Position numbers and translations under genes: made by a program. 64,000 bases of DNA from a virus. Taxonomy: Duplodnaviria; Heunggongvirae; Uroviricota; Caudoviricetes. The notes under the pieces were generated by a model. The model had not been told where the DNA came from. It saw only the letters and a list, made by a program, of their open reading frames with translations, and made no database searches. Shown one piece after another: positions 22,889-64,000 of the stretch. The stretch's first letter is position 1. The number at the start of each line of letters is the position of its first letter. The stretch lies in IMG/VR virus record IMGVR_UViG_3300042894_001948; one strand, 5' to 3'.

Positions 22889-23419
22889 TTATCCTGTATA
22901 TCTACAGTGGCTTTTACGAGTTTCCCACAGCTCAACTGCAGTAACCTTTGCTACATCACCTATACGTGATTGAGCATACTCAAACAAATATTTACAAATG
23001 TTTTCGCTTGTTGGTACAAAATCAACTAATACAAAACTATTATAATGTAATTGCATACTGTCTGTTAGCCCAACCCAGTTATAACTTCCTAAATTTGAAA
23101 AGTTTTTAAAATCTTCAATCTTAGGCATGTGACTTGCTGTGATCATATCAAAATTTGGATCGTTAATATCAATCATAAATTTATGATCCAATACATCATC
23201 TACAAATTGTTTCATAAAGTTTAAATTCTTAAAGTCTGTAACCATTTCTGAATGATCTAACGTATCAGAACCTAAAAATACTTTAATTGAATAGCTGTGT
23301 CCGTGTAAATGCTTGCAGGCACAGTCAGTTGAAATACTTAACTCAACATGATTTAATTTTTGTGCCCATACTCTGTGTCCGCCTTCCCACGAAAATGTTT
23401 TGTCTATTTCCCACTTCAT
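22889..23419 (-). CDS. queD: 6-carboxy-5,6,7,8-tetrahydropterin synthase (QueD/PTPS family)
   Basis: Has the C-x3-H-G-H zinc motif (CKHLHGHSYSIKVFLG), a …MVTDF…LDH… core and a C-terminal …ETRKSHCRYTG. These are collinear with E. coli QueD (CGRLHGHSFMVRLEI…IIDF…LDH…ETCTAGCIYRGE). Confidence 0.75.
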   Translation of the reverse strand: MKWEIDKTFSWEGGHRVWAQKLNHVELSISTDCACKHLHGHSYSIKVFLGSDTLDHSEMVTDFKNLNFMKQFVDDVLDHKFMIDINDPNFDMITASHMPKIEDFKNFSNLGSYNWVGLTDSMQLHYNSFVLVDFVPTSENICKYLFEYAQSRIGDVAKVTAVELWETRKSHCRYTG

Positions 23420-37759: not shown

Positions 37760-37768
37760 TCAAAATCT

Positions 37769-37797
37769 TGACAGGTCAGTTATTGTATAGTATAATT
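37769..37797 (+). promoter_or_regulatory. Consensus sigma70 promoter TTGACA-N17-TATAAT upstream of dnaJ
   Basis: TTGACA at 37769-37774 and TATAAT at 37792-37797. It is embedded in a larger inverted repeat (AGGTCAGTT … AACTGACCT). Confidence 0.65.
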
Positions 37798-37833
37798 ACT
37801 GTACAAACTGACCTTTTTTATGAGAAATTAACC

Positions 37834-38673
37834 ATGACAGACTTTTATTCAAAATTAGGTGTGTCCAAAGACGCATCACAAGACGATATTAAAAAAGCAT
37901 ATCGTTCATTAGCTAACAAGCACCATCCGGACAAAGGTGGAGACCAGGCAACATTTAAAGATATATCAGTAGCATATGATACGTTAAGTGATCCACAAAA
38001 ACGCCAAGAATACGATATGCAACAAAATAGCAATCCATTTGGAGGATTCCACGGCGGAGGACAACATTTCCACTTTGATATGAATGACATGTTTGGCCAA
38101 CATGCACATTTTACAAATATGTTTGGAAATGGATTTAGACAGCAACAACGAAATAGAGATTTAAATCTACAAGTACAAGTAACGCTGGTTGAATCGTACA
38201 ATGGAAAACAAGTTGATGCAACATTTAATATGCCAAGTGGACGACCACAAACCGTAACAATAAACGTTCCGGCTGGTATTGATCACGGTGATACTATTAG
38301 ATATAACGGGTTAGGAGATGATTCTATTCCTAATATACAAAGAGGAAACCTTAATGTAACTGTTCATGTTATTCCTGATCCTAATTTTAGAAGAGAAGGC
38401 AACGATGTATACACAACGTTGCATATTTCACCAATTGAAGCAATGATCGGGTGTATCAAAGACGTTAAGACTATTACAGGCAACACTATTCAAGTAACAA
38501 TTAGACCAGGTGTCGAAACAGGCACAGAGTTTGCTAAAGCAGGTGCCGGTTTTACAAATCTACACAGCAAACAAACTGGAAGATTTGTTACGGTTATTAA
38601 AATTGCTCCGTGTTTAGTAACAGATCCAGCATTAGTAGCACAATTGCAGCAAATACAAAGCCAACTTGCTTGA
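37834..38673 (+). CDS. dnaJ: DnaJ-family co-chaperone (J domain plus C-terminal substrate-binding domain; no zinc-finger repeat seen)
   Basis: J-domain DFYSKLGVSKDASQDDIKKAYRSLANKHHPDKGGD with the HPD tripeptide. The C-terminal beta-rich region resembles DnaJ_C. The start is taken at the ATG at 37834. Confidence 0.8.
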   Translation: MTDFYSKLGVSKDASQDDIKKAYRSLANKHHPDKGGDQATFKDISVAYDTLSDPQKRQEYDMQQNSNPFGGFHGGGQHFHFDMNDMFGQHAHFTNMFGNGFRQQQRNRDLNLQVQVTLVESYNGKQVDATFNMPSGRPQTVTINVPAGIDHGDTIRYNGLGDDSIPNIQRGNLNVTVHVIPDPNFRREGNDVYTTLHISPIEAMIGCIKDVKTITGNTIQVTIRPGVETGTEFAKAGAGFTNLHSKQTGRFVTVIKIAPCLVTDPALVAQLQQIQSQLA

Positions 38674-49934: not shown

Positions 49935-50153
49935 GTGAGCCACAAATCACATAAACTGAGATACAATATGGAAGAATTTGAAATCTGTACGGAATGTATT
50001 CGTCCGGAGATATGTTTATCAAGATGCGAATGCAGTATTATTGTTAGTAGCGAAGAAGCTGTTGCAAGAATACGTGACGAAGAAGCATTTATGTCATGGA
50101 TTAACGAACACGCAACTAATCGCGATATCGGTCGCGACGGCGGTGCAGAATGA
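49935..50153 (+). CDS. Small Cys-rich protein (up to 72 aa; start uncertain)
   Basis: …ICTECIRPEICLSRCECS… cysteine cluster. ATGA overlap with the DNA polymerase start. Confidence 0.4.
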   Translation: MSHKSHKLRYNMEEFEICTECIRPEICLSRCECSIIVSSEEAVARIRDEEAFMSWINEHATNRDIGRDGGAE

Positions 50154-52810
50154 GTTATATAGACGGATACTTTGATCGTAACAACGACATTATTAAAATT
50201 GTAGAAAGAAATTCAAAAGGTGAGCGTGAGTTTAAAGATATTCCTGTTAAACATACGTTATATTATAAAGACCCGAGAGGGAAATATCAATCAATTTACG
50301 GAGATCCCGTATCAAAAATCGTTTGTAGAAATACAAAAGAGTATAGAAAAGAACTTTCTATACACAGCTCAAATAAAACATACGAAGCAGATATTAACCC
50401 AATATTTGCGTGTTTATCAGAAAACTATCTTAATCATGACGCACCTAAACTAAATGTTGCGTTCTTTGATATCGAGGTTGATTTTGATCCTGAACGCGGG
50501 TATGCATCACCTGATGATGCATTTATGCCTATTACTGCTATTGCTGTACACTTACAATGGTTAGAAACACTTATTTGTTTAGCAATACCTCCAAAAACAT
50601 TAACTATGGAACAAGCAGAAGAACAAGTTAAAGAGTTTCCTAATACATTTTTATTTAAAACAGAAGGTGAGCTATTAGACACATTTCTTAACTTAATAGA
50701 AGATGCTGACATTTTAAGTGGCTGGAATAGTGAAGGATTTGATATTCCGTATACAGTTAATCGCGTTACTAAAGTATTATCAAAAGATGATACACGTAGA
50801 TTCTGTTTATTTGATCAATTACCTAAAAGACGTGAATACGAAAAGTACGGTAAAGCATCTGTAACATATGACTTTGTAGGACGAGTACATTTAGATAGTT
50901 TACAACTATATCAAAAGTACACATACGAAGAAAGACATAGTTTTAGACTTGACGCTATTGCAGAATATGAGTTAGGCGACCGTAAAACACAGTATGAAGG
51001 TACACTTGATCAACTGTATAACAACGACTTTAAAACATTTGTTGAATACAACAGACAAGATACTATGCTTTTAGATAGACTTGATAAAAAACTAAAGTTT
51101 ATTGACTTAGCTAACACACTTGCACATGAAAACACTGTATTATTACAAACTACTATGGGCGCAGTTGCTGTAACAGAGCAAGCTATTATTAACGAAGCAC
51201 ATCATAGAGGATTTGTAGTACCAAATAGACGTAGAGAAGAACCAATTCAAGCTGCAGGTGCGTATGTTGCGTATCCTAAAGAAGGAATTCATGACTGGAT
51301 AGGCTCACTAGATATTAACTCACTGTATCCAAGTGCTATTAGAGCACTAAATATGGGTCCGGAGACTATTGTAGGACAGCTAAGACCTATCGTAACTGAC
51401 GATTTTATCTCTTTACAAATTGCAAAAGGCAAATCATTTGCTGCTGCATGGGAAGGGTTGTTTGGTACATTTGAATACACTGCTGTTATGAATGAAGAAA
51501 TTGGTACTGATATTACAGTTGACTGGGAAAACGGTGATACTAATGTTCTTAGTGCTGCGGAAGTATACAGACTAGTGTTTGAAAGTAACCAACCATGGGT
51601 GCTATCGGCAAATGGAACAATCTTTTCAGTTGAGAAAGAAGGTGTTATTCCCGGATTGCTTAAACGATGGTATGCAGAACGTAAAGAAATGCAAGCTAAG
51701 TTAAAAGACGCAATTAATGCAGGTAACAAGATTGAAGAAGAATACTGGGACAAAAGACAGCTAGTTAAGAAGATTAACCTAAATAGTTTATATGGTGCTA
51801 TTCTTAATCCAGGTTGTAGGTTCTTTGATAAACGTATTGGGCAATCAACTACACTAGTAGGACGTCAAATTGCTAAACATATGGCTGCAAAAGTAAATGA
51901 AATTATTACAGGTGATTATAACCATACCGGTAAAGCTATTATTTACGGCGATACTGACTCTTGTTATTTTTCAGCGTATAATACACTTAGAGCTGATATT
52001 GACAAAGGGTTAATTCCGTGGTCTAAAGAGAATATTACACAATTGTATGACCAAATTGGCGACGAAGTTAACGGTACGTTTCAACAGTTTATGTTAGATG
52101 CATTCCACTGTCCTAAATCACGTGGTGAAGTTATTAAAGCAGGACGTGAGATTGTTGGTAGTAAGTCACTATTCATTACTAAAAAGCGTTATGCAGTATT
52201 AGTATATGATAAAGAAGGCAAGCGTAAAGATACTAATGGTAAAAACGGTGAAATTAAAGCTATGGGCTTAGATTTAAAACGTAGTGATACACCGGAGTTT
52301 ATTCAAGACTTCTTATCTAACGTGTTAACTATGGTACTAGCGGGAGAAAGCGAAGATGACGTACTAGATTACATTACTGAATTTAGATTATTATTCAAAG
52401 CTAGACCCGGATGGGAAAAAGGTTCACCTAAACGTGCTAATAACATTACCACTTATGCAAATAAAGAAGATAAGCAAGGTAAAGTCAATATGCCAGGACA
52501 TGTTAGAGCAAGTTTAAATTGGAATACATTAAAACGCATGTATGGTGACAAGTATTCAATGGCGATCACAGATGGTGCAAAAGTTATTGTATGCAAACTT
52601 AAACAAAATCCATTAGGGTTTACAAGTGTTGCATATCCAGTAGATGAATTACGACTGCCGCAATGGTTTAAAGACTTACCATTTGATCATAATGAAATGG
52701 AACAAACGATTATTGATAATAAATTGGATAACTTAATTGGGATTCTTAATTGGAAACTAGTTAATACCTCTGATAAAAACACATTTAACAACTTATTTGA
52801 CTTTGATTAA
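50150..52810 (+). CDS. Family-B DNA polymerase (T4 gp43-like)
   Basis: Exo I FFDIEVD, …NSEGFDIPY… (compare T4 NIEGFDVPY), motif A LDINSLYPSAI, motif B KINLNSLYGAIL, motif C IYGDTDSCYF. 886 aa. Confidence 0.9.
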   Translation: MSYIDGYFDRNNDIIKIVERNSKGEREFKDIPVKHTLYYKDPRGKYQSIYGDPVSKIVCRNTKEYRKELSIHSSNKTYEADINPIFACLSENYLNHDAPKLNVAFFDIEVDFDPERGYASPDDAFMPITAIAVHLQWLETLICLAIPPKTLTMEQAEEQVKEFPNTFLFKTEGELLDTFLNLIEDADILSGWNSEGFDIPYTVNRVTKVLSKDDTRRFCLFDQLPKRREYEKYGKASVTYDFVGRVHLDSLQLYQKYTYEERHSFRLDAIAEYELGDRKTQYEGTLDQLYNNDFKTFVEYNRQDTMLLDRLDKKLKFIDLANTLAHENTVLLQTTMGAVAVTEQAIINEAHHRGFVVPNRRREEPIQAAGAYVAYPKEGIHDWIGSLDINSLYPSAIRALNMGPETIVGQLRPIVTDDFISLQIAKGKSFAAAWEGLFGTFEYTAVMNEEIGTDITVDWENGDTNVLSAAEVYRLVFESNQPWVLSANGTIFSVEKEGVIPGLLKRWYAERKEMQAKLKDAINAGNKIEEEYWDKRQLVKKINLNSLYGAILNPGCRFFDKRIGQSTTLVGRQIAKHMAAKVNEIITGDYNHTGKAIIYGDTDSCYFSAYNTLRADIDKGLIPWSKENITQLYDQIGDEVNGTFQQFMLDAFHCPKSRGEVIKAGREIVGSKSLFITKKRYAVLVYDKEGKRKDTNGKNGEIKAMGLDLKRSDTPEFIQDFLSNVLTMVLAGESEDDVLDYITEFRLLFKARPGWEKGSPKRANNITTYANKEDKQGKVNMPGHVRASLNWNTLKRMYGDKYSMAITDGAKVIVCKLKQNPLGFTSVAYPVDELRLPQWFKDLPFDHNEMEQTIIDNKLDNLIGILNWKLVNTSDKNTFNNLFDFD

Positions 52811-52817
52811 AATACAG

Positions 52818-52846
52818 TTGACAATACAACACAAATACATTATAAT
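52818..52846 (+). promoter_or_regulatory. Consensus sigma70 promoter TTGACA-N17-TATAAT
   Basis: TTGACA at 52818-52823 and TATAAT at 52841-52846. GGAG RBS before the ATG at 52869. Confidence 0.65.
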
Positions 52847-52868: not shown

Positions 52869-53603
52869 ATGAAAGACTTTTTACAAGATTTAGTAAGACA
52901 TACACACACATTAGGCGTATTACCATTAGTTAAAGTTTCTGCAGAAGATACATATGTTGCAATTGATTCAATGGCTGAAGATAGATCAGTGATTCTTAAT
53001 GCAAAAACACATGCACCTGTTAACGGGTTAAACAGCGTATTTGGTATGCCAAACTTAAACAAATTAGACTTACACCTTAAATGTCCAGAATATAAAGACG
53101 ACGCAGTTATTAATATAGTATATGATACACGCGATGGTGAATACGTTCCTACTGGATTACACTTTACCAATGCTACTGGTGACTTCCAAAATGATTACAG
53201 ATTTATGTCTCGTGCAATTATTGAAGCAAAAGTAAAGAAACCTAAAAACAAAGTAGAAATTGTTTACGATATTGAGTTTAAACCTGAATCAGCCAATGTA
53301 CAGCGTTTAAAATTTCAAGCTGCAGCACATACAGAAGAAACTGTATTTCAAGTATCAACTGAAGATAATAACTTAGTTTTTAGCTTTGGCGATGCTAGTA
53401 CACACGCAGGTACATTTGTATTTTACTCGGGCATTGATTATAAATTAAAAAATACATGGTCATGGCCTGTTGCACAAATTCTAAGTATTTTAAATTTAGA
53501 CGGTAATATTACAATGAAAATTGCAGATCAAGGAGCATTACAAATTATTGTCGAAAGCGGTATTGCTGAATACACGTATACATTACCTGCACAAACAAAA
53601 TAA
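52869..53603 (+). CDS. Hypothetical protein (244 aa); possible sliding clamp (gp45-like), based on size and position only
   Basis: Sits immediately downstream of the DNA polymerase, and its length is close to T4 gp45. No diagnostic motif was recognised, so the function is speculative. Confidence 0.5.
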   Translation: MKDFLQDLVRHTHTLGVLPLVKVSAEDTYVAIDSMAEDRSVILNAKTHAPVNGLNSVFGMPNLNKLDLHLKCPEYKDDAVINIVYDTRDGEYVPTGLHFTNATGDFQNDYRFMSRAIIEAKVKKPKNKVEIVYDIEFKPESANVQRLKFQAAAHTEETVFQVSTEDNNLVFSFGDASTHAGTFVFYSGIDYKLKNTWSWPVAQILSILNLDGNITMKIADQGALQIIVESGIAEYTYTLPAQTK

Positions 53604-54013
53604 TGATAGACATTAGAAACGCATTAAAATTATTAGACGTTGTTTATGTTAATCAAAATGAAAGTGTTAAGTCATCTCTTGATAAAGTAACAATGTTAGC
53701 ACAGTTAGATTCTCCTGTATGGACTCCACCTGGTCCGTTTGAACAGTTTTATGTTGATTATGAATACATGAAACAACGTGTGCAAGGACTTGAATCAAGA
53801 TTAAACACACTTGAAGGCTATAATAGAGATCCATATACTAATCACACTGTTAATTCTTATATAGCTAACTATGTTAATACGAGTTATCAAATTACAGGTA
53901 TGTCTACAAAAATTACAGCTTTAGAAACTAAATTGCAAGAAGTTACTACACTACTTGCAACGTTAACCCCAGAACAGGAAGAAGATGAATCGGAACTTAA
54001 CAGCAAAATATAA
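53603..54013 (+). CDS. Hypothetical coiled-coil protein (136 aa)
   Basis: ATGA overlap. Heptad-rich segments (…LESRLNTLEG…ITALETKLQEVTTLLATL…). Confidence 0.5.
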   Translation: MIDIRNALKLLDVVYVNQNESVKSSLDKVTMLAQLDSPVWTPPGPFEQFYVDYEYMKQRVQGLESRLNTLEGYNRDPYTNHTVNSYIANYVNTSYQITGMSTKITALETKLQEVTTLLATLTPEQEEDESELNSKI

Positions 54014-54054
54014 TAAGTTATAGTTGCGGATAAATATACGTTTAGGAGATTAAT

Positions 54055-54810
54055 ATGTTTTATGTATATGTATATCTAGATCCACTTTTTCCATCCAACT
54101 GTAGTTACGATAACATTTCCTTTACTTATGTGCCAATATATGTTGGTAAAGGTAAAGGAAATCGATATAAGGATCATATGGTAAAAACATCAAATAAAAT
54201 TTTTGAAAACAAGATACAGTTTTGGAAAACTAATAATATTAAACCAATTGTTATATTTATTGAAACTAATATATCTGAACAAGATGCATGGGATATAGAA
54301 GAACGATTAGTTGTAGAGATTGGAAGATTAGATTTAAAAACGGGACCATTATTAAATTTAACCAACGGTGGGGAAGGATGTTCCGGAATTATACCGTGGA
54401 ACAAAGGTATACAAACTGGTTCATTTTTAACAGCAGACGGTCAATCTAAAATAAGCAATGCTAATAAAGGTAAGGTACTTTCAGATGAAACTAAATCTAA
54501 AATAAGTGTAGCTAATAAAGGTAAACCTAAATCTATTGTGCATTGTAAAAAAATAAGTGAGTCACTGACGGGTAACATTCCGTGGAATAAAGGAAAACAC
54601 ACTGGTCAAGAATCGTGGATGACAGGTAAAGCTCACTCATTAGAATCTCGTAAAAAGATGTCAGATTCTCACAAGGGAAATACGCTCACTGAAGAACAAA
54701 AAACTAAAATTAGTAATAAATTAAAAGGGCGTGTTATATCAGATGAAACACGAATTAAAATGTCAGAATCAAAAAAACAATACTGGGCACAAAAGAAAAA
54801 TGGAACGTAA
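54055..54810 (+). CDS. GIY-YIG homing endonuclease with NUMOD3-like DNA-binding repeats
   Basis: N-terminal FYVYVY…YVGKGKGNRYKDH (GIY…YIG module). Repeated …IPWNKG…TG… / …NKGK..S.ETK.KIS.ANKGK… units downstream. Confidence 0.75.
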   Translation: MFYVYVYLDPLFPSNCSYDNISFTYVPIYVGKGKGNRYKDHMVKTSNKIFENKIQFWKTNNIKPIVIFIETNISEQDAWDIEERLVVEIGRLDLKTGPLLNLTNGGEGCSGIIPWNKGIQTGSFLTADGQSKISNANKGKVLSDETKSKISVANKGKPKSIVHCKKISESLTGNIPWNKGKHTGQESWMTGKAHSLESRKKMSDSHKGNTLTEEQKTKISNKLKGRVISDETRIKMSESKKQYWAQKKNGT

Positions 54811-56500
54811 TTTAACAAATATTCAAACAGGTACAAACGGGCTAAGCCAATATGCCGTATTCCTTCCTGCAACGTCGGGATTTTACTCAACGTTTATTGG
54901 AAGACAACGCTACGGGAATTATGTAGAACCGTCTCGTATACCAACGTCATTTAAATCAGGAGTAGAAAGTTTAAATTACTTAGAACCTGATAAGGGTGAA
55001 TTTTATTACAGATGGTGTTTGTATTCAGCTGGTCACGCAAACTTAGACTTAGACAAAGATGATGAAGCTGAAGATATGTTTCGTAACAGAGATAGAACTA
55101 CAAGTTGGGTATTAGGCGATTCGGGAGGTTTTCAGATTGGTAAAGGTGTTTGGCCAGCTGATTGGAAAGATCCTACTTGTCCTAAAGCACAAAAGAAACG
55201 TGAACAAGTGTTACGGTGGATGGACGAGTTAATGGATTACGGTATGTGTCTTGATATTCCTGCGTGGGTTGCACGTATGCCAGCAGGACGAAGAGCAACT
55301 GGCATTAACAATTACAAGGATGCAGTTAAAGGTACATTTATTAATAATGAATACTTTATCCAAAATCGTACAGGTGCATGTAAATTCTTAAATGTATTGC
55401 AAGGCGAAACACATAAAGATGCCGAAAAATGGTATCAGAGTATGAAAAAGTTTTGCGATACTAAAGTTTACGGTGATAAAGCATTTAACGGCTGGGCAAT
55501 GGGTGGTCAAAACATGTGCGATGCTGATTTAGTACTTAGAAGAATTGTTTCGTTAAAATTTGACAATATGTTACAAGAAGGTCAACATGACTGGATGCAT
55601 TTCTTAGGCACTAGCAAATTAGAATGGGCATGTTTACTAACTATGATACAACGATCGGTCCGTAAACACATTAATCCTAATTTTACTATTAGTTATGATT
55701 GTGCTAGTCCATTCTTAGCTACTGCAAACGGTCAAGTGTATGTTACAACCGAACTTGAAGATAGAGCAAAATGGGTCTATCGAATGGTGCCAAGTGTAGA
55801 TGATAAAAAATACGCAACTGATACTAGGTTATTTAAAGATGTAGTAATCGACGATGGTATTTTTAAAGTGTTTACTCCAAGTCCACTTATTGATCAAGTA
55901 CAAATAAAAGATATATGCATTTATGGAGCAGGTGTTCCTAATTGGACAGAAGTTGATAATGACGGTATTGATCACACTAAGTTGTTTACAGAACCATTAT
56001 ATTTAAATGATCCTAAATACTGGGTTACTATGGGTAACACTAATAAGATTAACAAAGTTGGTAGAACAAGTTGGGACAGTTTTAGTTATGCTATATTGAT
56101 GGGTCATAATGTATGGAGCCACATTAACGCAGTACAACGTGCAAATGAAGCAGTTGATAACAATATTTTGCCATATATGTTAGTTGATGAAAAATTTAAT
56201 CCGGTATTTGTTAGTGATATTATTGATAAAATTATTAGTAGCAAATCTAAACGTGTTGCGTTAAACCTAATAAAAAAATATAGTAAACTATGGATTGATA
56301 TTCCAGGTACACGCGGTAATTGTGGTAAAAAGACAATCAATGCTGATACAAAATTTAACGAATTTTGGACACTTGATGAATTAGAGCCTGATGATTTAGA
56401 CGACGATAATTTTGATCCAACAGCTTATGATTTTTCTGAAGAAGATGAAGACACGTTACATAACCTAGAAGATAGCATTAAAGATGAACAGACAGTATAA
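54800..56500 (+). CDS. dpdA: DpdA-like DNA-guanine transglycosylase (tRNA-guanine transglycosylase superfamily)
   Basis: TGT-family catalytic signature …VLGDSGGFQIGKG… (compare Tgt …TDSGGFQV…). ~567 aa. The start is taken at the ATG at 54800, overlapping the GIY-YIG stop. folE/queE lie nearby. Confidence 0.7.
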   Translation: MERNLTNIQTGTNGLSQYAVFLPATSGFYSTFIGRQRYGNYVEPSRIPTSFKSGVESLNYLEPDKGEFYYRWCLYSAGHANLDLDKDDEAEDMFRNRDRTTSWVLGDSGGFQIGKGVWPADWKDPTCPKAQKKREQVLRWMDELMDYGMCLDIPAWVARMPAGRRATGINNYKDAVKGTFINNEYFIQNRTGACKFLNVLQGETHKDAEKWYQSMKKFCDTKVYGDKAFNGWAMGGQNMCDADLVLRRIVSLKFDNMLQEGQHDWMHFLGTSKLEWACLLTMIQRSVRKHINPNFTISYDCASPFLATANGQVYVTTELEDRAKWVYRMVPSVDDKKYATDTRLFKDVVIDDGIFKVFTPSPLIDQVQIKDICIYGAGVPNWTEVDNDGIDHTKLFTEPLYLNDPKYWVTMGNTNKINKVGRTSWDSFSYAILMGHNVWSHINAVQRANEAVDNNILPYMLVDEKFNPVFVSDIIDKIISSKSKRVALNLIKKYSKLWIDIPGTRGNCGKKTINADTKFNEFWTLDELEPDDLDDDNFDPTAYDFSEEDEDTLHNLEDSIKDEQTV

Positions 56501-57008
56501 TAACATAACTACAAACACTGCTAAGTTTTTTATTGGTAACGAAGTTGAACACACACCAGCATATGGTTTAAAAACATTGTTTGTTGTTGGTAATCAAACT
56601 ATAGAAGCAGTACATTATCGGTTAGATGCTGAAGAAGATGTTACACACATCTTCTTTGGTGCAAACCATAGTTTTAATCCAAATACACCAGGTGCATGGA
56701 TTGACTGGAATCACATAATTGAACACTTTTTAAAATTAGGCAAACAGTGTTCATTAGATATTCCATTTACAGTAGTAAACGATTTTAATAATAAAACTAA
56801 CTTATGTTCATATTCAAATTTTATTCCACAAATTAGAATTCCGGTTGCAAATATTAAAGATTGGAGTTATAATACAATGATAAAATTAGATGACATAGAT
56901 TTTAACGCAACTAATCCCGGGGTGTGGACACATAACTTAAAAGCATTGCAAAATGATGATGTGTTTACTAGCTGGACTGACTATAACAACGACAATATAA
57001 TTAAATGA
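56484..57008 (+). CDS. Hypothetical protein (174 aa) in the dpdA cluster
   Basis: Overlaps the dpdA stop. Operon-like packing. Confidence 0.5.
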   Translation: MNRQYNNITTNTAKFFIGNEVEHTPAYGLKTLFVVGNQTIEAVHYRLDAEEDVTHIFFGANHSFNPNTPGAWIDWNHIIEHFLKLGKQCSLDIPFTVVNDFNNKTNLCSYSNFIPQIRIPVANIKDWSYNTMIKLDDIDFNATNPGVWTHNLKALQNDDVFTSWTDYNNDNIIK

Positions 57009-57364
57009 CAGATAATAAAATGATATGGGTTACTTTTAAGAAAGAAGGAATTCACCATTACCCTGATGCATTAACTAACCCTAACTTAATAGATGTATCT
57101 TTTTTAGGACATCCACATAGACATATATTTCATTTTAAAGTATGGATAGAAGTTACGCATTCTGACAGAGACATTGAGTTTATACAATTTAAACGATGGT
57201 TAGAATCATTGTATATTAGTTCAACATTATCATTAGATAACAAAAGTTGTGAAATGATAAGTAATGATTTATCATTAACAATTAGAAATGAATACCCTAA
57301 TAGGGCAATTTGGATTGAAGTTTCTGAAGACGGCGAAAACGGATCATTTATTAAGTATTTGTAA
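57005..57364 (+). CDS. Short QueD/PTPS-like T-fold protein (119 aa), a second paralog
   Basis: …FKKEGIHHYPD…FLGHPHRHIFHFKVWIEV…IEFIQFKRWLE… is collinear with the QueD core (FEAAHRLP…LHGHSFMVRLEI…IIDFAELKAAF). Confidence 0.45.
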   Translation: MTDNKMIWVTFKKEGIHHYPDALTNPNLIDVSFLGHPHRHIFHFKVWIEVTHSDRDIEFIQFKRWLESLYISSTLSLDNKSCEMISNDLSLTIRNEYPNRAIWIEVSEDGENGSFIKYL

Positions 57365-57365
57365 T

Positions 57366-57578
57366 ATGAAACATTATGTCTCAAAAGCTATGCTTGAACA
57401 AAAAATTAATCGTTTACGCCAAGAGATATCAGTCTTTGAAATCCAACATATGAAATCAGCTAACCCTAAACTTAAAAACGTAGTACACATTAAACAATTA
57501 AGAAATCAACTGTACGATTTGAAGGAACAACTGCTAATTCGTACTAATCAAACTATATTAAAAAACGGAAGAAAATAA
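57366..57578 (+). CDS. Hypothetical small protein (~70 aa)
   Basis: ATG at 57366 directly after the previous stop. Basic, helical. Confidence 0.4.
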   Translation: MKHYVSKAMLEQKINRLRQEISVFEIQHMKSANPKLKNVVHIKQLRNQLYDLKEQLLIRTNQTILKNGRK

Positions 57579-57579
57579 A

Positions 57580-57834
57580 ATGGCTAAAAATTACAAAACA
57601 TTCTCATACTTTGAATCACGTCCAGATGTTGTTAAAATCTTTGAAGATTTAGAAGCATTCCATGACTTTTGTAGAATTGAGTTACGTAAATTTGATCCAG
57701 CAGATTTATATCGCAAAGATAGTAAATCATACGGTTCGTACATAGCAAGTAAACGTCCTCGTAAACCTTATCAAGGTAATAAACCTTGGCCAAACGGTGT
57801 TAGACCAAAACATTATAATAATAAAAAAGCCTAA
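57580..57834 (+). CDS. Hypothetical small basic protein (84 aa)
   Basis: ATAAAATGG junction. A terminator hairpin follows. Confidence 0.45.
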   Translation: MAKNYKTFSYFESRPDVVKIFEDLEAFHDFCRIELRKFDPADLYRKDSKSYGSYIASKRPRKPYQGNKPWPNGVRPKHYNNKKA

Positions 57835-57852
57835 CAGTTATTTTTCAACTAT

Positions 57853-57881
57853 GAAAGCTCCGTACGGAGCTTTCACTCTTT
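57853..57881 (+). terminator. Rho-independent terminator (weak T-tract)
   Basis: GAAAGCTCCGtaCGGAGCTTTCactcttt. Confidence 0.5.
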
Positions 57882-57891
57882 AAGGAATTTT

Positions 57892-58986
57892 ATGAAACCT
57901 ACTATTTGGATATTTCCTGTAGAACCGCTAGATACTAGATATACTAGACAATGGCACACTCATATCCCTAAACAACTACGTCAGCACATCAAAGACAAAT
58001 ATAACATAGTTCAAATAGACGGAGAACAAAATGCAACTGACGTAACTCCGGGTGCATTTTTAAACTTTGTTGATACTAATGTATGGAAAAGCTCACAGCT
58101 TGTTGGGTTTTTAAAAAACTATCACAGAACTACGCCAAACGATCATTTCTTGTTTACTGATGCATGGAATCCTACTATTGTACAATTAAAGTACATTAAT
58201 GACTTAGAACATTTAAATTGGACATTTCATGGCCTATGGCACGCGGGTAATTATGACAAACATGACTTTTTAGGAAACATTACAGGTGCATGGGTTAACC
58301 TTGCAGAAAAAGCAATGTTTACATCATACACACATAATTATTTTGCTACAGAATTTCATGTAAGAATGTTTTTTGACAATATAGTACAATACGGTTATCC
58401 AAGTGAAAATCCATGGTATGACGAAGACTGGGATGAAGTGTATGACGACAAGTCTATTATAAAAACAGGTTGGCCTATGGAGTATTTAGAAGATACATTA
58501 GCTCCATATAAAGGTGCAGAAAAACGTAATTTAATATTATTTCCACATCGAATTGCTCCGGAAAAACAAGTTGATATTTTTAGAGCGTTGGCTCATCAAT
58601 TACCACAATACGATTTTGTAGTGTGCCAAGATGAAAAGCTAACTAAAGACGAATATCATAAATTACTAAGTGAAGCAAAGATCGTATTTAGTGCTAACTT
58701 ACAAGAAACATTAGGCATAAGTTGTTACGAAGGCGCATTGCTTGGTGCTATACCTATGGTTCCTGATAGATTAAGTTACAAAGAAATGTATATGTATCAT
58801 TTTAAATACCCGTCAGAATGGACTGAAAGTTATGCAGATTACGAAGCTCACAGTTATGATTTATGTAATAAAATTATTCATTATATAGAGAACTATGATA
58901 GTATAGCGCATTATGTACAAACACAAACAGAATATTTAACAAAAGAGTTTTTTAACGCAGAGAAATTATATGATAGATTTAAATAA
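57892..58986 (+). CDS. GT-B fold glycosyltransferase (GT4/GT1-like, EX7E motif)
   Basis: TAAGGA RBS. C-terminal …ANLQETLGISCYEGALLGAIPMVPD… carries the E-x7-E motif (E-TLGISCY-E) with a following G..P.V, characteristic of retaining GT4-type enzymes. Confidence 0.5.
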   Translation: MKPTIWIFPVEPLDTRYTRQWHTHIPKQLRQHIKDKYNIVQIDGEQNATDVTPGAFLNFVDTNVWKSSQLVGFLKNYHRTTPNDHFLFTDAWNPTIVQLKYINDLEHLNWTFHGLWHAGNYDKHDFLGNITGAWVNLAEKAMFTSYTHNYFATEFHVRMFFDNIVQYGYPSENPWYDEDWDEVYDDKSIIKTGWPMEYLEDTLAPYKGAEKRNLILFPHRIAPEKQVDIFRALAHQLPQYDFVVCQDEKLTKDEYHKLLSEAKIVFSANLQETLGISCYEGALLGAIPMVPDRLSYKEMYMYHFKYPSEWTESYADYEAHSYDLCNKIIHYIENYDSIAHYVQTQTEYLTKEFFNAEKLYDRFK

Positions 58987-59398
58987 AGATACAATTACAT
59001 TTACTATGGACGGAGATGCACGTTATAGTATACCAGCGTTTGATGCAAGTTCATTATCATCGTACACTGCTTCAAACATAATGAGCGGAACAGCAGCAAG
59101 TGATACTATCACTATTACAGGTAGTAATGGCATATACGGACATAATACTATATCAGGAATTGGTTCCACTAACTTAACAAGTAACTATTACGCATATAAC
59201 GGAATAGGAGCAAATACTTGGTCTAATGCCAATTGGGCTGCTGCAAATGGAAAACCATTTGTAGATGCATTTCCAGATTGGAATGCATTTAGAACACTAT
59301 GCGAAGATTATCCGGGTTTAGAAAAAGCATACGAAAATTTAAAAACAATTTATACAATTTGCTATGAAGATAGCATATTACCAAAGGATGACGAATGA
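58970..59398 (+). CDS. Hypothetical protein (142 aa)
   Basis: Overlaps both neighbours (operon-like). Confidence 0.45.
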   Translation: MIDLNKDTITFTMDGDARYSIPAFDASSLSSYTASNIMSGTAASDTITITGSNGIYGHNTISGIGSTNLTSNYYAYNGIGANTWSNANWAAANGKPFVDAFPDWNAFRTLCEDYPGLEKAYENLKTIYTICYEDSILPKDDE

Positions 59399-59925
59399 AA
59401 GTAGTAAAATATAATTGGGCACAGTTAGAAGGTGCTGCATTAGAACTTGCACGACAAATACATGCGTCTAAATGGAAACCAGATTACATTGTTGGAATTA
59501 CACGCGGGGGACTTATTCCCGCAAACTTACTTAGTCAGTATCTCGGAGTTAAGATGTTAACATTACACGTTAGTTTACGTGATCATCCGGATGATAACGA
59601 ACACAATGCATGGATGGCATGTGATGCATTTGGAATTACTGATGACGAATTAGCAAGTACTGGTCAAGCTAAAAACATTTTAATCGTTGATGATATAAAT
59701 GATTCTGGTGCAACACTTGAATGGATTAAAGCTGATTGGCAATCATTATGTTTACCAGATGATATTCGGTGGAAACATGATGTATGGCATAAGAATGTAA
59801 GATTTGCTACAATATTTGATAATAGTGCTAGTAATGCACATGTTGATTATTGTGCTGAAGAATTTGATAAACGAGACGATCCAATTTGGATCGACTTTCC
59901 TTGGGAAAACTACTGGAAGAAATAA
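59395..59925 (+). CDS. Type I phosphoribosyltransferase (purine/HGPRT-like)
   Basis: PRPP-binding motif …NILIVDDINDSGATLEW… and an N-terminal …DYIVGITRGGLIPANLLSQYLGV… hood region. 176 aa. Confidence 0.7.
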   Translation: MKVVKYNWAQLEGAALELARQIHASKWKPDYIVGITRGGLIPANLLSQYLGVKMLTLHVSLRDHPDDNEHNAWMACDAFGITDDELASTGQAKNILIVDDINDSGATLEWIKADWQSLCLPDDIRWKHDVWHKNVRFATIFDNSASNAHVDYCAEEFDKRDDPIWIDFPWENYWKK

Positions 59926-60257
59926 TGGATCTACATTCAATAGCTAACAAACACGGTATACGAAGCATAGACGTTGAACAATATTATGCTGCAGGTGATA
60001 ATTATTCGTTAGATTGGTCAAGATCAAACCTGCCAAGCGAACGAGCAAACATTACAAGGTCGTTAACTGTTAAAATACACGAGAGAGATTTTATAACGTT
60101 AATTGACAAAGCTGAAAAATGGGAAGAATGGAATAAAAAATACTATGAAGATATGTATGTTAGAGATTCTAATCCAACTGTAAAAGCAGCATACGAAAAA
60201 TATCAAATGTTTTTAGAAATAGCAAGATCGGAAGTAAAAAATGACAGATTTAACTAA
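59926..60257 (+). CDS. Hypothetical protein (~110 aa)
   Basis: ATG at 59926 overlapping the PRTase stop (ATAATGG). Confidence 0.45.
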
Positions 60258-60402
60258 AGAAGAATTACAAGAAAAAATTGCACAAGTAAAAAGTGATATG
60301 GCAAAACATAGAGATTCTAGTAATCCTCGAATGTTATTAGGGCTTGCTCAATATTTAGAATATTTAGAAGACGAATTAAAAACCTTGACAAAGAACTCTT
60401 AA
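60241..60402 (+). CDS. Small coiled-coil ORF (53 aa)
   Basis: AAAAATG overlap with the previous gene. Followed by a hairpin. Short, so the call is tentative. Confidence 0.3.
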   Translation: MTDLTKEELQEKIAQVKSDMAKHRDSSNPRMLLGLAQYLEYLEDELKTLTKNS

Positions 60403-60413
60403 CTAATAAATAA

Positions 60414-60445
60414 CAATGGGCAATCATGATAGGAATGCCCATTTT
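60414..60445 (+). terminator. Hairpin with a short T-tract (possible terminator)
   Basis: AATGGGCAatcatgataggaaTGCCCATTtt. Confidence 0.4.
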
Positions 60446-60479
60446 AAAAATCAATTATGTAAGGAGTAAGGAATCTTAT

Positions 60480-61340
60480 ATGTCATCTAATAACAATATA
60501 TATTATGTCTATGTATACTTAGATCCAAGAACACCAGGTCAATATGTTTCTACATTTTGTTCACTGTTATTTAAACCATTTTATGTAGGTTACGGTAAAA
60601 ATAATCGATTATTTGATCATCTTAAAGAAGCACGGCCTACACGAAAATATAAAAATTCACATAAATTAAACACAATTAGAGAATTAACTAGATTGCAGTT
60701 ATTACCAATAATTTTTAAAGTAGCCACTAATCTATCTGAAGAAGATGCAGTAGAATTAGAGACTAAATTAATTTTAGAATTTAGAAACTATAAAATAACA
60801 AATATTCGTGAGAGAGGGTGGGTGTCCCATCAAACTGCAAGGAGTAACCCTGTTCGTAACTTACAACCGCACATTGGGCTAAGAACAGACACAATTACAG
60901 TATACAATACTAACATCAAAGAACATACTATTATTAAGAAATCTAAATTATTAGATTTACAAGAGGCTAATAGTCATCATGATATTATTGTTACAACCGG
61001 TATTAAAACAAGAATTGGTGCTAACACTACTATGGCAAGAGTAGGTACTAATAATGGCATGTATGGTAGATCTGCAACTAAAGGGTATAAATGGTGTATA
61101 ATTAACAATGTTGAATATTTTTTATCTAAAAAAGATGTTGACTTTTACTTAGAAAACAATTATAATATTACATATGGTAGATTAAATAAACCTTCTAAAC
61201 AGAGAATAATTTTTGAAGGTGAACTTAAAGGAAAATACCGAACTAATCAAGATATTAGCGATAATCCTACACAATGCTATCAAATTGGATTAATTTGGAA
61301 ACATGATAAACCTACTTTTAAAAATCACAAACAAATATAA
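60480..61340 (+). CDS. GIY-YIG homing endonuclease (second copy)
   Basis: AAGGAG RBS. N-terminal IYYVYVYLDPR…PFYVGYGKNNRLFDH… (GIY-YIG variant). The C-terminus is basic with repeat-like helices. Confidence 0.65.
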   Translation: MSSNNNIYYVYVYLDPRTPGQYVSTFCSLLFKPFYVGYGKNNRLFDHLKEARPTRKYKNSHKLNTIRELTRLQLLPIIFKVATNLSEEDAVELETKLILEFRNYKITNIRERGWVSHQTARSNPVRNLQPHIGLRTDTITVYNTNIKEHTIIKKSKLLDLQEANSHHDIIVTTGIKTRIGANTTMARVGTNNGMYGRSATKGYKWCIINNVEYFLSKKDVDFYLENNYNITYGRLNKPSKQRIIFEGELKGKYRTNQDISDNPTQCYQIGLIWKHDKPTFKNHKQI

Positions 61341-61354
61341 CAGGAATTAAAATA

Positions 61355-62032
61355 ATGAGCTTTGATAAAACTAAAACAGATCCAGCGTTAGGTAAACGAG
61401 TAAGAGAATATTTAATTAGTAAAGGAGTTGAAACTCCAATTAATAATACGGCCCTAGTAGTTGATAATAAAACAAAAATTGACATTATTGAAAACGCATT
61501 TACAACAATATGGTCAACATTAGGAATGGACTTAACAGATGATAGTTTAGCAGAAACACCAAATCGAATGGCTAAAATGTACACAAATGAAATATATTTT
61601 GGACTTAAAGAAGAAAACTTTCCAAAGTGTACTACTATTAAAAACAAAATGGGCTACAATGAAATTGTTGTGGAAAGAAATGTAAACATACAAAGTAATT
61701 GTGAACATCACGGAGTTGTAATTGACGGCTTTGCAACAGTTGGTTATATTCCAAACGAGGTTGTACTTGGACTAAGCAAAATTAATCGTGTAGTTGAATA
61801 CTTTGCAAAACGTCCGCAAGTACAAGAAAGATTAACCGAACAAGTATTCCATGCATTAGAATACATATTAGGCACTGATAATATTGCAGTAGTTATTGAT
61901 GCAAAACATTATTGTGTTGCTGCAAGAGGTGTAGAAGATACTGGCAGTTCTACTGTTACAAGTAAGTTAGGCGGCGCATTTAAAAACGATCCAACTACTC
62001 GTGCAGAATTTATGAGTATTGTAAACAAATAA
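61355..62032 (+). CDS. folE: GTP cyclohydrolase I (FolE)
   Basis: …NIQSNCEHHGVVIDG… catalytic CEHH motif. …SKINRVVEYFAKRPQVQERLT… conserved C-terminal region. Confidence 0.85.
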   Translation: MSFDKTKTDPALGKRVREYLISKGVETPINNTALVVDNKTKIDIIENAFTTIWSTLGMDLTDDSLAETPNRMAKMYTNEIYFGLKEENFPKCTTIKNKMGYNEIVVERNVNIQSNCEHHGVVIDGFATVGYIPNEVVLGLSKINRVVEYFAKRPQVQERLTEQVFHALEYILGTDNIAVVIDAKHYCVAARGVEDTGSSTVTSKLGGAFKNDPTTRAEFMSIVNK

Positions 62033-62040
62033 GGAGAGTT

Positions 62041-62490
62041 ATGAAAGACTTAAAACTACAAATTCCAGCAGAAGGCATTATGAAAACAAGTGACTGGGGT
62101 AACAGTAAAATGTATAAAATTCAATGCACATGCGGCAACGACGATGACAATATTGAGTTTATGGTTGAGGCAGATGATCTTAATATGATCACTGTAACTA
62201 CATTTACAACACAAAAAACTGCGTACTGGGATAGACCATTTGATGTTTCGAACACATACAAAATTAAAAATTCGTTTTTAAGCAGTATTGCATACGAAAC
62301 ATTGAGCTTTCTTAACGGGTTTCAGCATCGTATTAAAATGACATGGAATTTGTGGTTTAATGGTTATCTTAAATATCAGCAGTCTACTATAATGTCCGAG
62401 CAACAGACATTAAACTATGCAGAAACATTGAAAGCTGCTATTAAAGATTGCAAAGAATTTCATAAAGAGGCTTACAATGAGAAAAACTAA
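62041..62490 (+). CDS. Hypothetical protein (149 aa)
   Basis: AAGGAGAG RBS. No recognisable motif. Confidence 0.5.
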   Translation: MKDLKLQIPAEGIMKTSDWGNSKMYKIQCTCGNDDDNIEFMVEADDLNMITVTTFTTQKTAYWDRPFDVSNTYKIKNSFLSSIAYETLSFLNGFQHRIKMTWNLWFNGYLKYQQSTIMSEQQTLNYAETLKAAIKDCKEFHKEAYNEKN

Positions 62491-62716
62491 AGAGAATCTT
62501 GAGCATAGAATCCAGCTCAAAAAAGACGAGATTGAGCGGTATATGGACAGAATTAAAAACTATCCGGCTGACAGATTGGAACGCAATGGTAAGCTATATC
62601 TTCAAAAATTACAACATAATCTTATTATCTTAGAGAACAAGGTAGACAACCGTGAAGGTCGTCGTAAACTTAACGCGTCACTAGGATATGCTAGAATCGG
62701 ATTAAACAATGTTTAA
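62477..62716 (+). CDS. Hypothetical small protein (79 aa)
   Basis: Overlaps the previous stop. Basic/helical. Confidence 0.4.
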   Translation: MRKTKENLEHRIQLKKDEIERYMDRIKNYPADRLERNGKLYLQKLQHNLIILENKVDNREGRRKLNASLGYARIGLNNV

Positions 62717-62726
62717 GGAATAACAG

Positions 62727-63533
62727 GTGACTGACTATAAACAACATATTTTAAAACATTCTTTAAATCCAAACAATCATAATATAACCCGCTATGTAAC
62801 ATTTATTGAGCATTGTAAAACCTTAGTACTTAATGACAAATACACCGAAACTCATCATATCGTTCCTAAGTCATTTGGCGGATTAGATAATATTAACAAC
62901 TTAATTACGTTAAGTGCAAGGCATCATTATATAGCACATTTATTATTAGCAAAAGGCACAAATAGTCCTAAAATGATTAAAGCATTACACTTAATGGTGT
63001 ATTCTAAAACTGGTGATGTATGCCGATCTTATAAAATAACCAATAGAGTGTATGCATACCTTAGAGAATCGCATGCAAAGGTTGTAAGTAATTATAGTAA
63101 AGGCACAGTGGTTGCAAAAAATTTGAATACTTTAGAAATTAAACGAATTCCTAAAGAACTTTTTGACAAATATAACGGTATTATATATGTTGCATTAGCA
63201 AAGGGTAGAAAAGACAGTATAGCAACTGTTAACAAAAAAAGAGAAGCTAGTAAACGACCACGCATAGTTTGTCAACAATCTATAGTTAGAAGCCAAACTG
63301 CATCTAAATACTCTTACTGTACACCTAAAGGATTTTGTAACACTAGTAAAGAACTACTAACAGTTTATCCAACATTTACTAAAAATACATTGACTATTAT
63401 TAATAATGATGTTATTATAACACATAAATTTGCGTCAATTCATAATGAGTTTTCAACGTTTGTTGGAAAATCTTTTAAAGAATTTGGTATAACTAAATTA
63501 ATCAAGGATAATACATGTCACACATTAAAATAA
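62727..63533 (+). CDS. HNH homing endonuclease
   Basis: …TETHHIVPKSFGGLDNINNLITLSARHHYIAH… (H-N-H core with flanking histidines). Confidence 0.7.
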   Translation: MTDYKQHILKHSLNPNNHNITRYVTFIEHCKTLVLNDKYTETHHIVPKSFGGLDNINNLITLSARHHYIAHLLLAKGTNSPKMIKALHLMVYSKTGDVCRSYKITNRVYAYLRESHAKVVSNYSKGTVVAKNLNTLEIKRIPKELFDKYNGIIYVALAKGRKDSIATVNKKREASKRPRIVCQQSIVRSQTASKYSYCTPKGFCNTSKELLTVYPTFTKNTLTIINNDVIITHKFASIHNEFSTFVGKSFKEFGITKLIKDNTCHTLK

Positions 63534-64000
63534 GCGAGATATTTTACTCACTGCAAGGCGAAGGGCGATTTATGGGAGTACCGTCAATTTTTTTACGAAC
63601 ATTTGGTTGCAATTTTCGCTGTAGAGGTTTTGGAATGCAAAACGGTGAATTAAGTACGGAAGCTTTGGATCTTGCAAAATCTGCATCATTATATACAAGC
63701 TATAATTTACTTCCATTAGTAACTACCGGTTGTGACTCATATGCTGCGATATATCCGCAGTTTAAGCGTTTAAGTCCAACTATGTCAATAGACGAAGTTG
63801 CAGCTAAAATGATTGAGCTGTTACCTAACGGTGAATGGGGTGGTGTACACTTAGTTATTACAGGTGGCGAACCATTATTACCAGGTTGGCAACAAATATA
63901 TCCAGAATTACTAAGACATCCTAAACTTGCAGACTTAAAAAACATTACATTCGAAACTAATGGTACACAAGAACTGTTACAAGATTTTGAAAACTACTTA
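63515..64000 (+). CDS. queE: 7-carboxy-7-deazaguanine synthase QueE (radical SAM), 3'-truncated by the window end
   Basis: …ISEIFYSLQGEGRFMGVPSIFLRTFGCNFRC… (QueE N-terminus and a Cys cluster) and …VITGGEPLL…. The ATG at 63515 overlaps the HNH stop. The reading frame is open to the window end. Confidence 0.75.
   Translation, partial: MSHIKISEIFYSLQGEGRFMGVPSIFLRTFGCNFRCRGFGMQNGELSTEALDLAKSASLYTSYNLLPLVTTGCDSYAAIYPQFKRLSPTMSIDEVAAKMIELLPNGEWGGVHLVITGGEPLLPGWQQIYPELLRHPKLADLKNITFETNGTQELLQDFENYL

Follow-up and report, generated by a model that had tools for sequence, protein, structure and literature searches.

The stretch of DNA analysed here in full (64,000 nucleotides, 35% G+C, referred to below as the window) is IMG/VR record IMGVR_UViG_3300042894_001948, from an uncultured jumbo phage of the class Caudoviricetes with a genome of approximately 270-370 kb. 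From position 54,800 to the end of the window runs a block of genes that lies entirely on the plus strand, with overlapping stop and start codons between neighbours, and that encodes a 566-residue protein with the fold of the tRNA-guanine transglycosylases (TGTs), a conserved 174-residue protein that we call p174, the QueD paralogue DpdL, a GT4-like glycosyltransferase (GT), a purine phosphoribosyltransferase (PRT), FolE and the beginning of QueE; a gene for QueD lies 31 kb upstream of the block on the minus strand. The gene order of the block, computed here together with the identities of its enzymes, is kept in related genomes. We read the block as a module that modifies phage DNA with 7-deazaguanine (DG) and does so without QueC, and we put the probability of this reading, with the pathway proposed below, at roughly 0.7. 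Modification of DNA with 7-deazaguanines is an established anti-restriction strategy, and its catalogue draws on a small number of cultured phages, with five DpdA subfamilies named. Systems of this kind are known; what is new here is an unrecognised branch of DpdA and an extended, conserved module around DpdL.

The TGT-fold protein is encoded at 54800..56500. The longest form of its open reading frame (ORF) begins at a GTG and covers 54731-56500 (589 residues); translation almost certainly begins at the ATG at 54800, the position from which homologues align and which yields the 566 residues of public gene calls made for this genome. A preliminary description of the window, made from the letters alone, had pointed to this ORF as a TGT-superfamily protein with the signature DSGGFQ, and the ORF, its start and the motif proved to be as stated there, with the fold in support of the superfamily. 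The motifs follow one another as DSGGFQ (55118-55135), LDIP (55250-55261), LQGE (55397-55408), HFLGTS (55598-55615) and SYDCAS (55691-55708). In a family alignment of 73 homologues, with identities down to 24%, the residues S99, D130, S131, G133, D175, P177, H290 and D323 (589-residue numbering) are invariant. Within DSGGFQ itself the D, the S and the second G never vary and the first G and the Q hardly do, so the motif is no chance hexapeptide; DSGG, the Asp of LD-P, QG, H-LG and the Asp of (S)YD are all invariant or nearly so across the alignment. The conserved Asp residues presumably occupy the positions of D102, D156 and D280 of TGT.

The AlphaFold2 model of the protein (pLDDT 87.6, pTM 0.83) carries the assignment further. 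A Foldseek search of the PDB gave 41 matches with E ≤ 0.001, every one of them a tRNA-guanine transglycosylase (TGT, QTRT1 or ArcTGT) at probability 1.00 with a top E of 1.6e-6, at 9-13% sequence identity and a target-normalised TM-score of about 0.5; among viral models (BFVD) the matches included DpdA2 of phage nt-1 (E 1.3e-10) as well as several proteins whose annotation is queuine tRNA-ribosyltransferase. Comparison of the family alignment with an alignment of seven DpdA2 proteins by hhalign gave a probability of 97.5% (E 5e-12) over 286 columns, pairing DSGGFQ with DSGGLQ, LD-IP with FDEIP, LQG with QGN, HFLG with HxLGxGS and SYD with SYDS; on the DpdA2 side DSGGLQ, FDEIP, HxLG and SYDS are invariant. 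From sequence and model together, we assign the protein to the DpdA superfamily, probably as a deep branch nearest DpdA2 and outside every named subfamily; with respect to DpdA2 it appears to be a sister or deep branch and no clear member.

With the TGTs (Z. mobilis 1q2r, human QTRT1) the window protein has in common the (beta/alpha)8 fold, DSGGFQ and Asp residues at the general-acid and nucleophile positions, and it differs from them in having no Pfam TGT match (PF01702), no conserved Zn-site cysteines (none across the 73-member family) and a genomic context that points to DNA rather than tRNA. The DpdA2 proteins of Vibrio phages nt-1 and VH7D and of Acidovorax phage ACP17 (PMC6884629, PMC10516641) are its closest characterised relatives and show the same order of motifs, DSGG(F/L)Q, (L/F)D-IP, QG, H-LG and SYD. 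The window protein is about 100-140 residues longer, with a C-terminal helical region and an acidic tail of its own, and it reads SYDCASPF where DpdA2 reads SYDSTTH. The tail (the last 60 residues, 56321-56500) holds 21 Asp or Glu against 4 Lys or Arg and has a pLDDT of about 45-56, which predicts disorder. Such a tail resembles those by which phage single-stranded DNA-binding proteins dock on replisome proteins, and the gene lies within the replication module.

The family is large: it forms 903 clusters at 50% identity, clustering at 90% leaves more than 7,400 sequences, and the members, which occur on contigs as long as about 370 kb, are all labelled 'hypothetical'. A tblastn search with the 589-residue query found only 13 carriers among phage records (11 phages of the group of Pseudomonas jumbo phage PA5oct, Sinorhizobium phage Phosso and Vibrio phage 2.275.O) and retrieved no DpdA2 phage. 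All 13 carriers have que genes: QueE lies 3 kb downstream of the DpdA-like gene in PA5oct, DpdL, FolE and QueE stand beside the polymerase of Phosso, and QueF, a YhhQ-type transporter, QueC, an amidotransferase and FolE follow directly in Vibrio phage 2.275.O. The gene is always found in the replication module: in the window and in PA5oct it follows the DNA polymerase, and in Phosso it precedes primase and helicase.

This setting bears on the substrate of the enzyme. Its nearest solved structures are tRNA enzymes, and a weaker Foldseek match (E 9.5e-3) is Cap10, a member of the TGT family that attaches a base to protein; both would suit a protein that acts on tRNA or protein instead of DNA, with the que genes boosting queuosine-type tRNA modification during infection. 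We consider such a target highly improbable. The window contains no tRNA genes, nor were QueA, QueG, QueH or QueF found in it; DG is no known tRNA base; the nearest characterised homologue, DpdA2, acts on DNA; the gene keeps company with the replication genes; and the DNA of PA5oct resists restriction. The resistance of PA5oct DNA extends to five restriction enzymes, and its authors suspected a modified G and named no transglycosylase (PMC12191111). Action on DNA, as in our preferred reading, also has a precedent in DpdA2 of VH7D, which in E. coli puts preQ1 and preQ0 as well as 7-carboxy-7-deazaguanine (CDG) into DNA (PMC10516641).

The enzymes that lead from GTP to CDG are all encoded. FolE (GTP cyclohydrolase I, which converts GTP to 7,8-dihydroneopterin triphosphate; 61355..62032, plus strand) scores 297.9 bits against an NCBIfam equivalog cut-off of 202, matches Pfam GTP_cyclohydroI with E 1.8e-58 and has the zinc motif CEHH at residue 116 (starting at 61700). 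QueD (6-carboxytetrahydropterin synthase, 176 residues; 22889..23419, minus strand) matches Pfam PTPS at 90.9 bits (cut-off 22.4) and phrog_2389, 'QueD-like', with E 3.6e-35, and its signature CKHLHGH is the canonical CxxxHGH; its NCBIfam equivalog score of 63.1 falls under the cut-off of 89.25 because of an insertion. QueE (CDG synthase; 63515..64000, plus strand) is present with the first 162 of its 280 codons, the gene running approximately 357 nucleotides beyond the window end. The full 280-residue protein was read from a 266-kb contig of the Joint Genome Institute (L018, positions 12161-13003), which differs from the window by 2 mismatches in 12,646 overlapping bases and is therefore usable for reading beyond the window end. 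Its five best NCBIfam matches are all QueE models (E 6e-13 to 5e-9), at 36-49 bits and so below the curated cut-offs of 200-300, and it is 53% identical to the QueE of the related clade L021 and 36% identical to the annotated QueE of PA5oct. The preliminary description had named all three genes, with FolE and QueE on the plus strand of one block and QueD as a PTPS homologue at some distance, and these identifications hold, that of QueE at scores below the curated cut-offs.

The cysteines of the radical S-adenosylmethionine cluster in this QueE are spaced CX3C-X36-C instead of CX3CX2C or CX14CX2C. The same insertion, of about 36-39 residues, is also found in the QueE proteins of PA5oct, X1, Moby, pf16 and BUCT-ZZ01; the spacing is CX3CX2C in ACP17 and Phosso and CX3CX7C in Cellulophaga phage phiST.

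What follows CDG is indicated by DpdL (119 residues; 57005..57364, plus strand), a QueD paralogue and proposed decarboxylase of CDG to DG. Its signature LGHPHRHIF (57104-57130, residues 34-42) has LxxxHRHxF in place of the CxxxHGH of QueD, it matches phrog_17812 with E 9e-36, and it is 58% identical to gp125 of ACP17 (E 3e-39), 60% to the Phosso protein, 51% to that of PA5oct and 34% to CGPG_00067 of phiST (E 4e-9). The replacement of CxxxHGH by LxxxHRHxF is what defines DpdL, whose founding members are CGPG_00067 and gp125; the protein occurs in phages that have DpdA, FolE, QueD and QueE and no QueC, and its proposed role is to turn CDG into DG (PMC10516641). QueC was found neither among the ORFs of the 64-kb window nor in the 8 kb downstream of it in L018, where QueE is followed by a 144-residue ORF, a 5'-3' exonuclease, an AAA ATPase, a DUF2201 protein and ThyX. 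On this point our results depart from the preliminary description, which had supposed that QueC or another tailoring enzyme lay outside the window, perhaps just downstream, and had left the exact modification open: a position for QueC just downstream of QueE is ruled out by the gene content of L018, the putative tailoring enzyme DpdL lies inside the window, and the gene set, judged by sequence, corresponds to the QueC-less CDG-to-DG set of PMC10516641, which predicts a base of the type of 2'-deoxy-7-deazaguanine (dDG). With DpdL present and QueC absent locally, the pathway would branch at CDG, and QueC need not be regarded as 'missing'.

In the pathway that we propose, FolE, QueD and QueE would convert GTP to CDG; DpdL, which does not have the catalytic Cys of QueD, would decarboxylate CDG to DG; and the 566-residue protein would swap guanine in the phage DNA for the deazapurine by the covalent Asp mechanism of the TGTs. 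DNA of the dDG type would be expected to resist restriction enzymes that read the N7 of G. In its simplest role, the PRT would return the released guanine by way of GMP to GTP, so feeding FolE. The decarboxylation, the exchange of bases into DNA, how far replacement extends and what PRT, GT and p174 do are inferred from the genes and from published systems. That some 7-deazaguanine is present in the phage DNA seems very likely, and the earlier expectation that the genome carries modified guanine is supported by the fold, the homology to DpdA2, the links to que genes and the resistance of PA5oct DNA. A base derived from DG, rather than preQ0, preQ1 or G+, is probable; plain dDG as the end product comes somewhat short of an even bet. 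The closest measured case is phiST, whose DNA contains 302,000 dDG in 10^6 nucleotides and, once digested, shows no dG peak (PMC10516641).

Several observations weigh against this reading. The 566-residue protein matches no family in Pfam, NCBIfam, PHROGs or PADLOC, and phmmer found nothing for it in the PDB; a hidden Markov model of the 73 homologues likewise returned only noise from PDB sequences. By BLASTP its similarity to DpdA2 of ACP17 is limited to the DSGG motif (E 0.32), and nothing was found against CGPG_00065 of phiST, which belongs to the DpdA3 subfamily of phiST and Campylobacter phages and for which hhalign reached only 83% over 82 columns (259 residues compared with 566). The decarboxylase activity is a proposal; co-expression in E. 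coli of DpdL from ACP17 or phiST with its own DpdA yielded no dDG, and the authors noted that other enzymes may be needed for dDG (PMC10516641). The search for QueC covered 72 kb out of the roughly 270-370 kb of the genome, which makes a distant QueC possible. The published scheme for dDG has no place for the GT4-like gene, p174 or the PRT, so either the scheme is incomplete or the product differs. As to the libraries, failure to match them is uninformative about membership, because members of the DpdA2 family fail too: gp123 of ACP17, which belongs to DpdA2 (36% identical to the nt-1 and VH7D proteins), is likewise matched by neither Pfam nor PADLOC, and DpdA2 of nt-1, which has been tested by experiment, has no relevant match in PADLOC. 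The profile check proposed in the preliminary description, under which a protein that matches no TGT or DpdA profile would count against the idea, came out negative in the four standard libraries and is uninformative for the same reason.

The comparison with phiST shows where the known system and the present one part. Both have FolE, QueD, QueE, DpdL and a DpdA without QueC, the motif LxxxHRHxF is common to both (PMC10516641), and both phages encode a homologous purine PRT (30% identity). The transglycosylase of phiST, in turn, is of a different branch (DpdA3, 259 residues), its 79-kb genome is not that of a jumbo phage, a P-loop kinase-like ORF and MazG stand by its DpdL, and it has no detectable homologue of the window's GT4-like gene or of p174.

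The GT (364 residues; 57892..58986, plus strand) has the EX7E motif of GT-B enzymes as ETLGISCYE (residues 272-280). Its Pfam Glycos_transf_1 scores are weak (15.9-18.1 bits, below the gathering thresholds), and its profile matches the GT4 structures GlgM and PglH in the PDB with E 7e-5. It is 45% identical to its counterpart in Phosso, 41% to that in PA5oct and 35% to that in ACP17. It has homologues in 22 phage records; DpdL is encoded in 17 of them, where about 0.01 would be expected by chance. In the window clade, PA5oct, Phosso, ACP17 and X1 the GT gene is zero to two genes away from DpdL or DpdA; in BCSR5 it is six genes away from DpdL, and in BUCT-ZZ01 two group-1 GT genes flank DpdL and DpdA2. 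DpdL and a GT4-like enzyme keep company in no fewer than seven lineages of phages (the window clade, PA5oct, Phosso, ACP17, X1/BUDD, BCSR5 and BUCT-ZZ01) and in abundant uncultured clades besides; in several of them a purine PRT is present as well.

The protein p174 (56484..57008, plus strand) is predicted to have a half-barrel alpha/beta fold for which the best structural match is QueE, yet it has none of the Fe-S cysteines. It accompanies DpdL in four lineages (the window clade, the L021 clade, the PA5oct group and ACP17). ACP17 has the arrangement p174-DpdA-GT-DpdL-QueE, as in the window, and the p174 homologue of PA5oct (43% identity) lies elsewhere in the genome, outside the cluster. Two candidates for its counterpart, the 'glycosylase' of Phosso and EST35_0320 of PA5oct, were rejected as not homologous. 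The GT4-like enzyme and p174 look like obligate partners of DpdL.

Such a partnership raises the possibility, which overlaps our preferred model, that the final base is a glycosylated or otherwise sugar-linked 7-deazaguanine, the GT transferring a sugar from a nucleotide-sugar to the deazapurine, in DNA or on a precursor, following plain decarboxylation or in place of it, with the help of p174. The recurrence of the GT near DpdL and DpdA across lineages, its intact EX7E and its resemblance to GT4 structures are all consistent with this. In the clade of L021 and L022 (DpdA 41%, DpdL 69% and QueE 53% identical to those of the window), a GalE-like epimerase and an HxGH nucleotidyltransferase directly follow the GT within the que cluster, and the PA5oct cluster includes an epimerase-domain ORF, which places sugar-nucleotide enzymes in the cluster of both; the window itself has no sugar-nucleotide genes beside the GT. 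A GT homologue of 24% identity in Xanthomonas phage PhiXhv-15 lies with a GlmS-like aminotransferase and an LmbE-type deacetylase (L024 4819-8053), which suggests that the family handles sugars; no que genes are nearby, and the locus may be a different, amino-sugar-based modification module. That phiST, in which plain dDG was measured, should be the phage without a detectable GT homologue fits as well, as does the finding that DpdA and DpdL alone did not suffice for dDG in E. coli, and the glycosylated queuosines of tRNA demonstrate that sugars on 7-deazaguanine derivatives are possible (PMC12518689).

The chemistry points the other way. Unsubstituted 7-deazaguanine has no hydroxyl group, and a GT4-type O-glycosyltransferase would need N- or C-glycosylation or another product of DpdL; no such base has been reported, and the GT could instead be directed at protein, lipid or another DNA base and be linked to the cluster by co-regulation only. 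We hold a sugar-bearing end product to be a tentative possibility. The broader proposal, in which DpdL, the GT4-like enzyme, p174 and the PRT together form a module, in jumbo and T4-like phages of this kind, for an undescribed sugar-bearing 7-deazaguanine, installed by the unrecognised DpdA subfamily and with the plain dDG of phiST as the special case that does without a GT, likewise strikes us as rather doubtful.

The PRT (176 residues; 59395..59925, plus strand) is a type I enzyme of the purine (xanthine/guanine) kind, with a Pfam Pribosyltran score of 61.7 bits (cut-off 26.3) and purine and xanthine-guanine PRTs as its best PDB relatives. Homologues are limited to 11 phage records, which include all five of the phiST group and BUCT-ZZ01, where the gene adjoins QueE; the domain is also found in the clusters of PA5oct, L021 and L023, and in L021 and L023 genes for HIT and metallophosphatase proteins adjoin it. 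These neighbourhoods suggest a second route to the modified DNA, in which the PRT would join CDG or DG to phosphoribosyl pyrophosphate, the resulting 7-deaza-GMP analogue would be raised to a deoxynucleoside triphosphate, and the polymerase would incorporate it, leaving the DpdA-like protein an auxiliary (clean-up) task or another substrate.

A purine-type PRT within the que cluster of the window, PA5oct, L021, L023 and BUCT-ZZ01 would suit such a route, as would its presence in the phiST group, where dDG was measured and which supplies 5 of the 11 homologue records, and the HIT and metallophosphatase genes beside it. In phiST, DpdL is flanked by the kinase-like ORF and a MazG-like pyrophosphatase. 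The former, CGPG_00066 (L004 7326-7805), lies between DpdL and DpdA3, is given as 'unknown' in PMC10516641 and matches P-loop kinase-type domains (AAA_18, E 9e-7); with the adjoining MazG and the PRT of that genome, it hints at nucleotide-level steps in a phage with measured dDG. A biochemical precedent is the tubercidin pathway (TubA, TubB, TubC and TubE; PMC6112128), in which FolE, QueD and QueE without QueC are combined with a phosphoribosyltransferase, TubE, that works with phosphoribosyl pyrophosphate and CDG toward a 7-deazapurine bare at C7. That pathway belongs to secondary metabolism, yields a free nucleoside and has no TGT-family enzyme, and the parallel with the window PRT is a lead taken from the literature. 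Incorporation by a polymerase would also explain complete replacement of G more easily.

Against this stands the DpdA-family gene itself, which is kept with intact catalytic motifs in all these phages, and DpdA2 demonstrably inserts deazaguanines after replication. The cluster regions that were examined in ACP17, Phosso and X1 showed no PRT, no enzyme that destroys dGTP was identified in the window, and guanine salvage accounts for the PRT equally well. We therefore judge a pre-replicative route improbable and retain exchange of the base by the DpdA-like protein as the preferred reading.

Outside the window clade, the arrangement is also seen in PA5oct, where the DpdA-like protein, GT, DpdL, PRT and QueE are encoded in one block directly after the DNA polymerase (EST35_0316-0322, all but QueE annotated 'hypothetical'). 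The DpdA-like protein, GT and DpdL are orthologous to those of the window at 37.5%, 41% and 51% identity, respectively; the PA5oct DpdL has HFH where that of the window has HRH, and the epimerase-domain ORF is an addition to the cluster.

The remaining genes of the block are small ORFs on the plus strand with no family match. One of 84 residues (57580..57834) between DpdL and GT and one of 142 residues (58970..59398) that overlaps the GT stop and the PRT start hold the same positions in the relatives L013, L014, L018 and L019, and two more of about 118 and 53 residues (59886..60402) keep the same order in relatives. Between FolE and QueE lie conserved ORFs of 149 and 79 residues (62041..62716; searched in Pfam and NCBIfam); the first has a counterpart of 147-149 residues in the same four relatives, and the second is called only in L018 and L019. 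Three homing endonucleases are encoded between the cluster genes: a GIY-YIG protein with NUMOD3 repeats (54055-54810), a LEM-3-type GIY-YIG protein (60426-61340) and an HNH protein (62727-63533). All three genes are absent from L013 and L014 (DpdA 77% identical), and L015 (an 89% relative) has, instead, an HNH gene between p174 and DpdL; these variable insertions mark the cluster as a hotspot for mobile endonucleases.

Upstream of the block lies a family-B DNA polymerase (50150-52810) that is 50% identical to that of Phosso, 45% to that of Atu_ph07 and about 42% to those of Rak2-like phages. A perfect sigma-70 consensus (TTGACA, 17 nucleotides, TATAAT; 12 of 12 positions, 52818-52846) begins 8 nucleotides past its stop and sits 22 nucleotides ahead of the 244-residue ORF (52869-53603) that heads the block; apart from this one site the promoter scan was uninformative, and the terminator scan gave a count equal to the shuffled expectation. 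The 244-residue ORF is kept after the polymerase in all relatives and has no Pfam or NCBIfam match; its positional counterparts are annotated as a 'structural protein' in PA5oct (detected by mass spectrometry) and as 'DNA polymerase III sliding clamp beta' in Phosso. By megablast, positions 54000-64000 have zero matches among the 50,697 records of the GenBank phage set; metagenomic contigs of up to 310 kb carry proteins identical to those of the window.

Elsewhere in the window, two giant minus-strand ORFs (8851-22131 and 125-7714; 4,426 and 2,529 residues, with a high content of Thr, Ser, Val and Ile) have the look of very large fibres or adhesins, and a 356-residue ORF with an endosialidase-chaperone (Peptidase_S74) domain comes after them. 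The phage encodes chaperones of its own, namely a GroES-like Cpn10 (29931-30314), a full DnaJ with J and C-terminal domains (37768-38673) and a ClpB/Hsp104-type double-AAA disaggregase (38732-41017). A 169-residue ORF (29058-29567) matches only a fragment of the NTPase domain of bacterial DNA polymerase III alpha (E 1e-10), and Phosso has a comparably short 'DnaE-like' ORF. A 570-residue protein (42046-43758; DUF6267, E 1e-35, and a weak cytidylyltransferase-like domain), which does not adjoin the cluster, could be a nucleotidyltransferase for sugar or nucleotide activation.

The searchable literature yielded no mention of a named DpdA in PA5oct-type phages, of the identity of the modified base of PA5oct or of a link between a GT and 7-deazaguanine DNA, with the qualification that the supplementary tables of PMC10516641 may list some of these proteins. 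For PA5oct, a therapeutic phage, EST35_0316 becomes a concrete candidate gene for the unexplained modified G, and the GT that accompanies DpdL, often with the PRT and p174, supplies candidates for the factors lacking in the failed reconstitution of dDG in E. coli. A glycosylated deazapurine as product and a pre-replicative nucleotide route are both testable in cultured phages (PA5oct, ACP17 and Phosso). DNA of this kind affects sequencing, cloning and restriction mapping as well as sensitivity to modification-dependent defences (END nucleases). For the jumbo phages as a group, a sixth, deep branch of DpdA that every standard annotation library misses would mean that surveys of phages with modified DNA undercount them.

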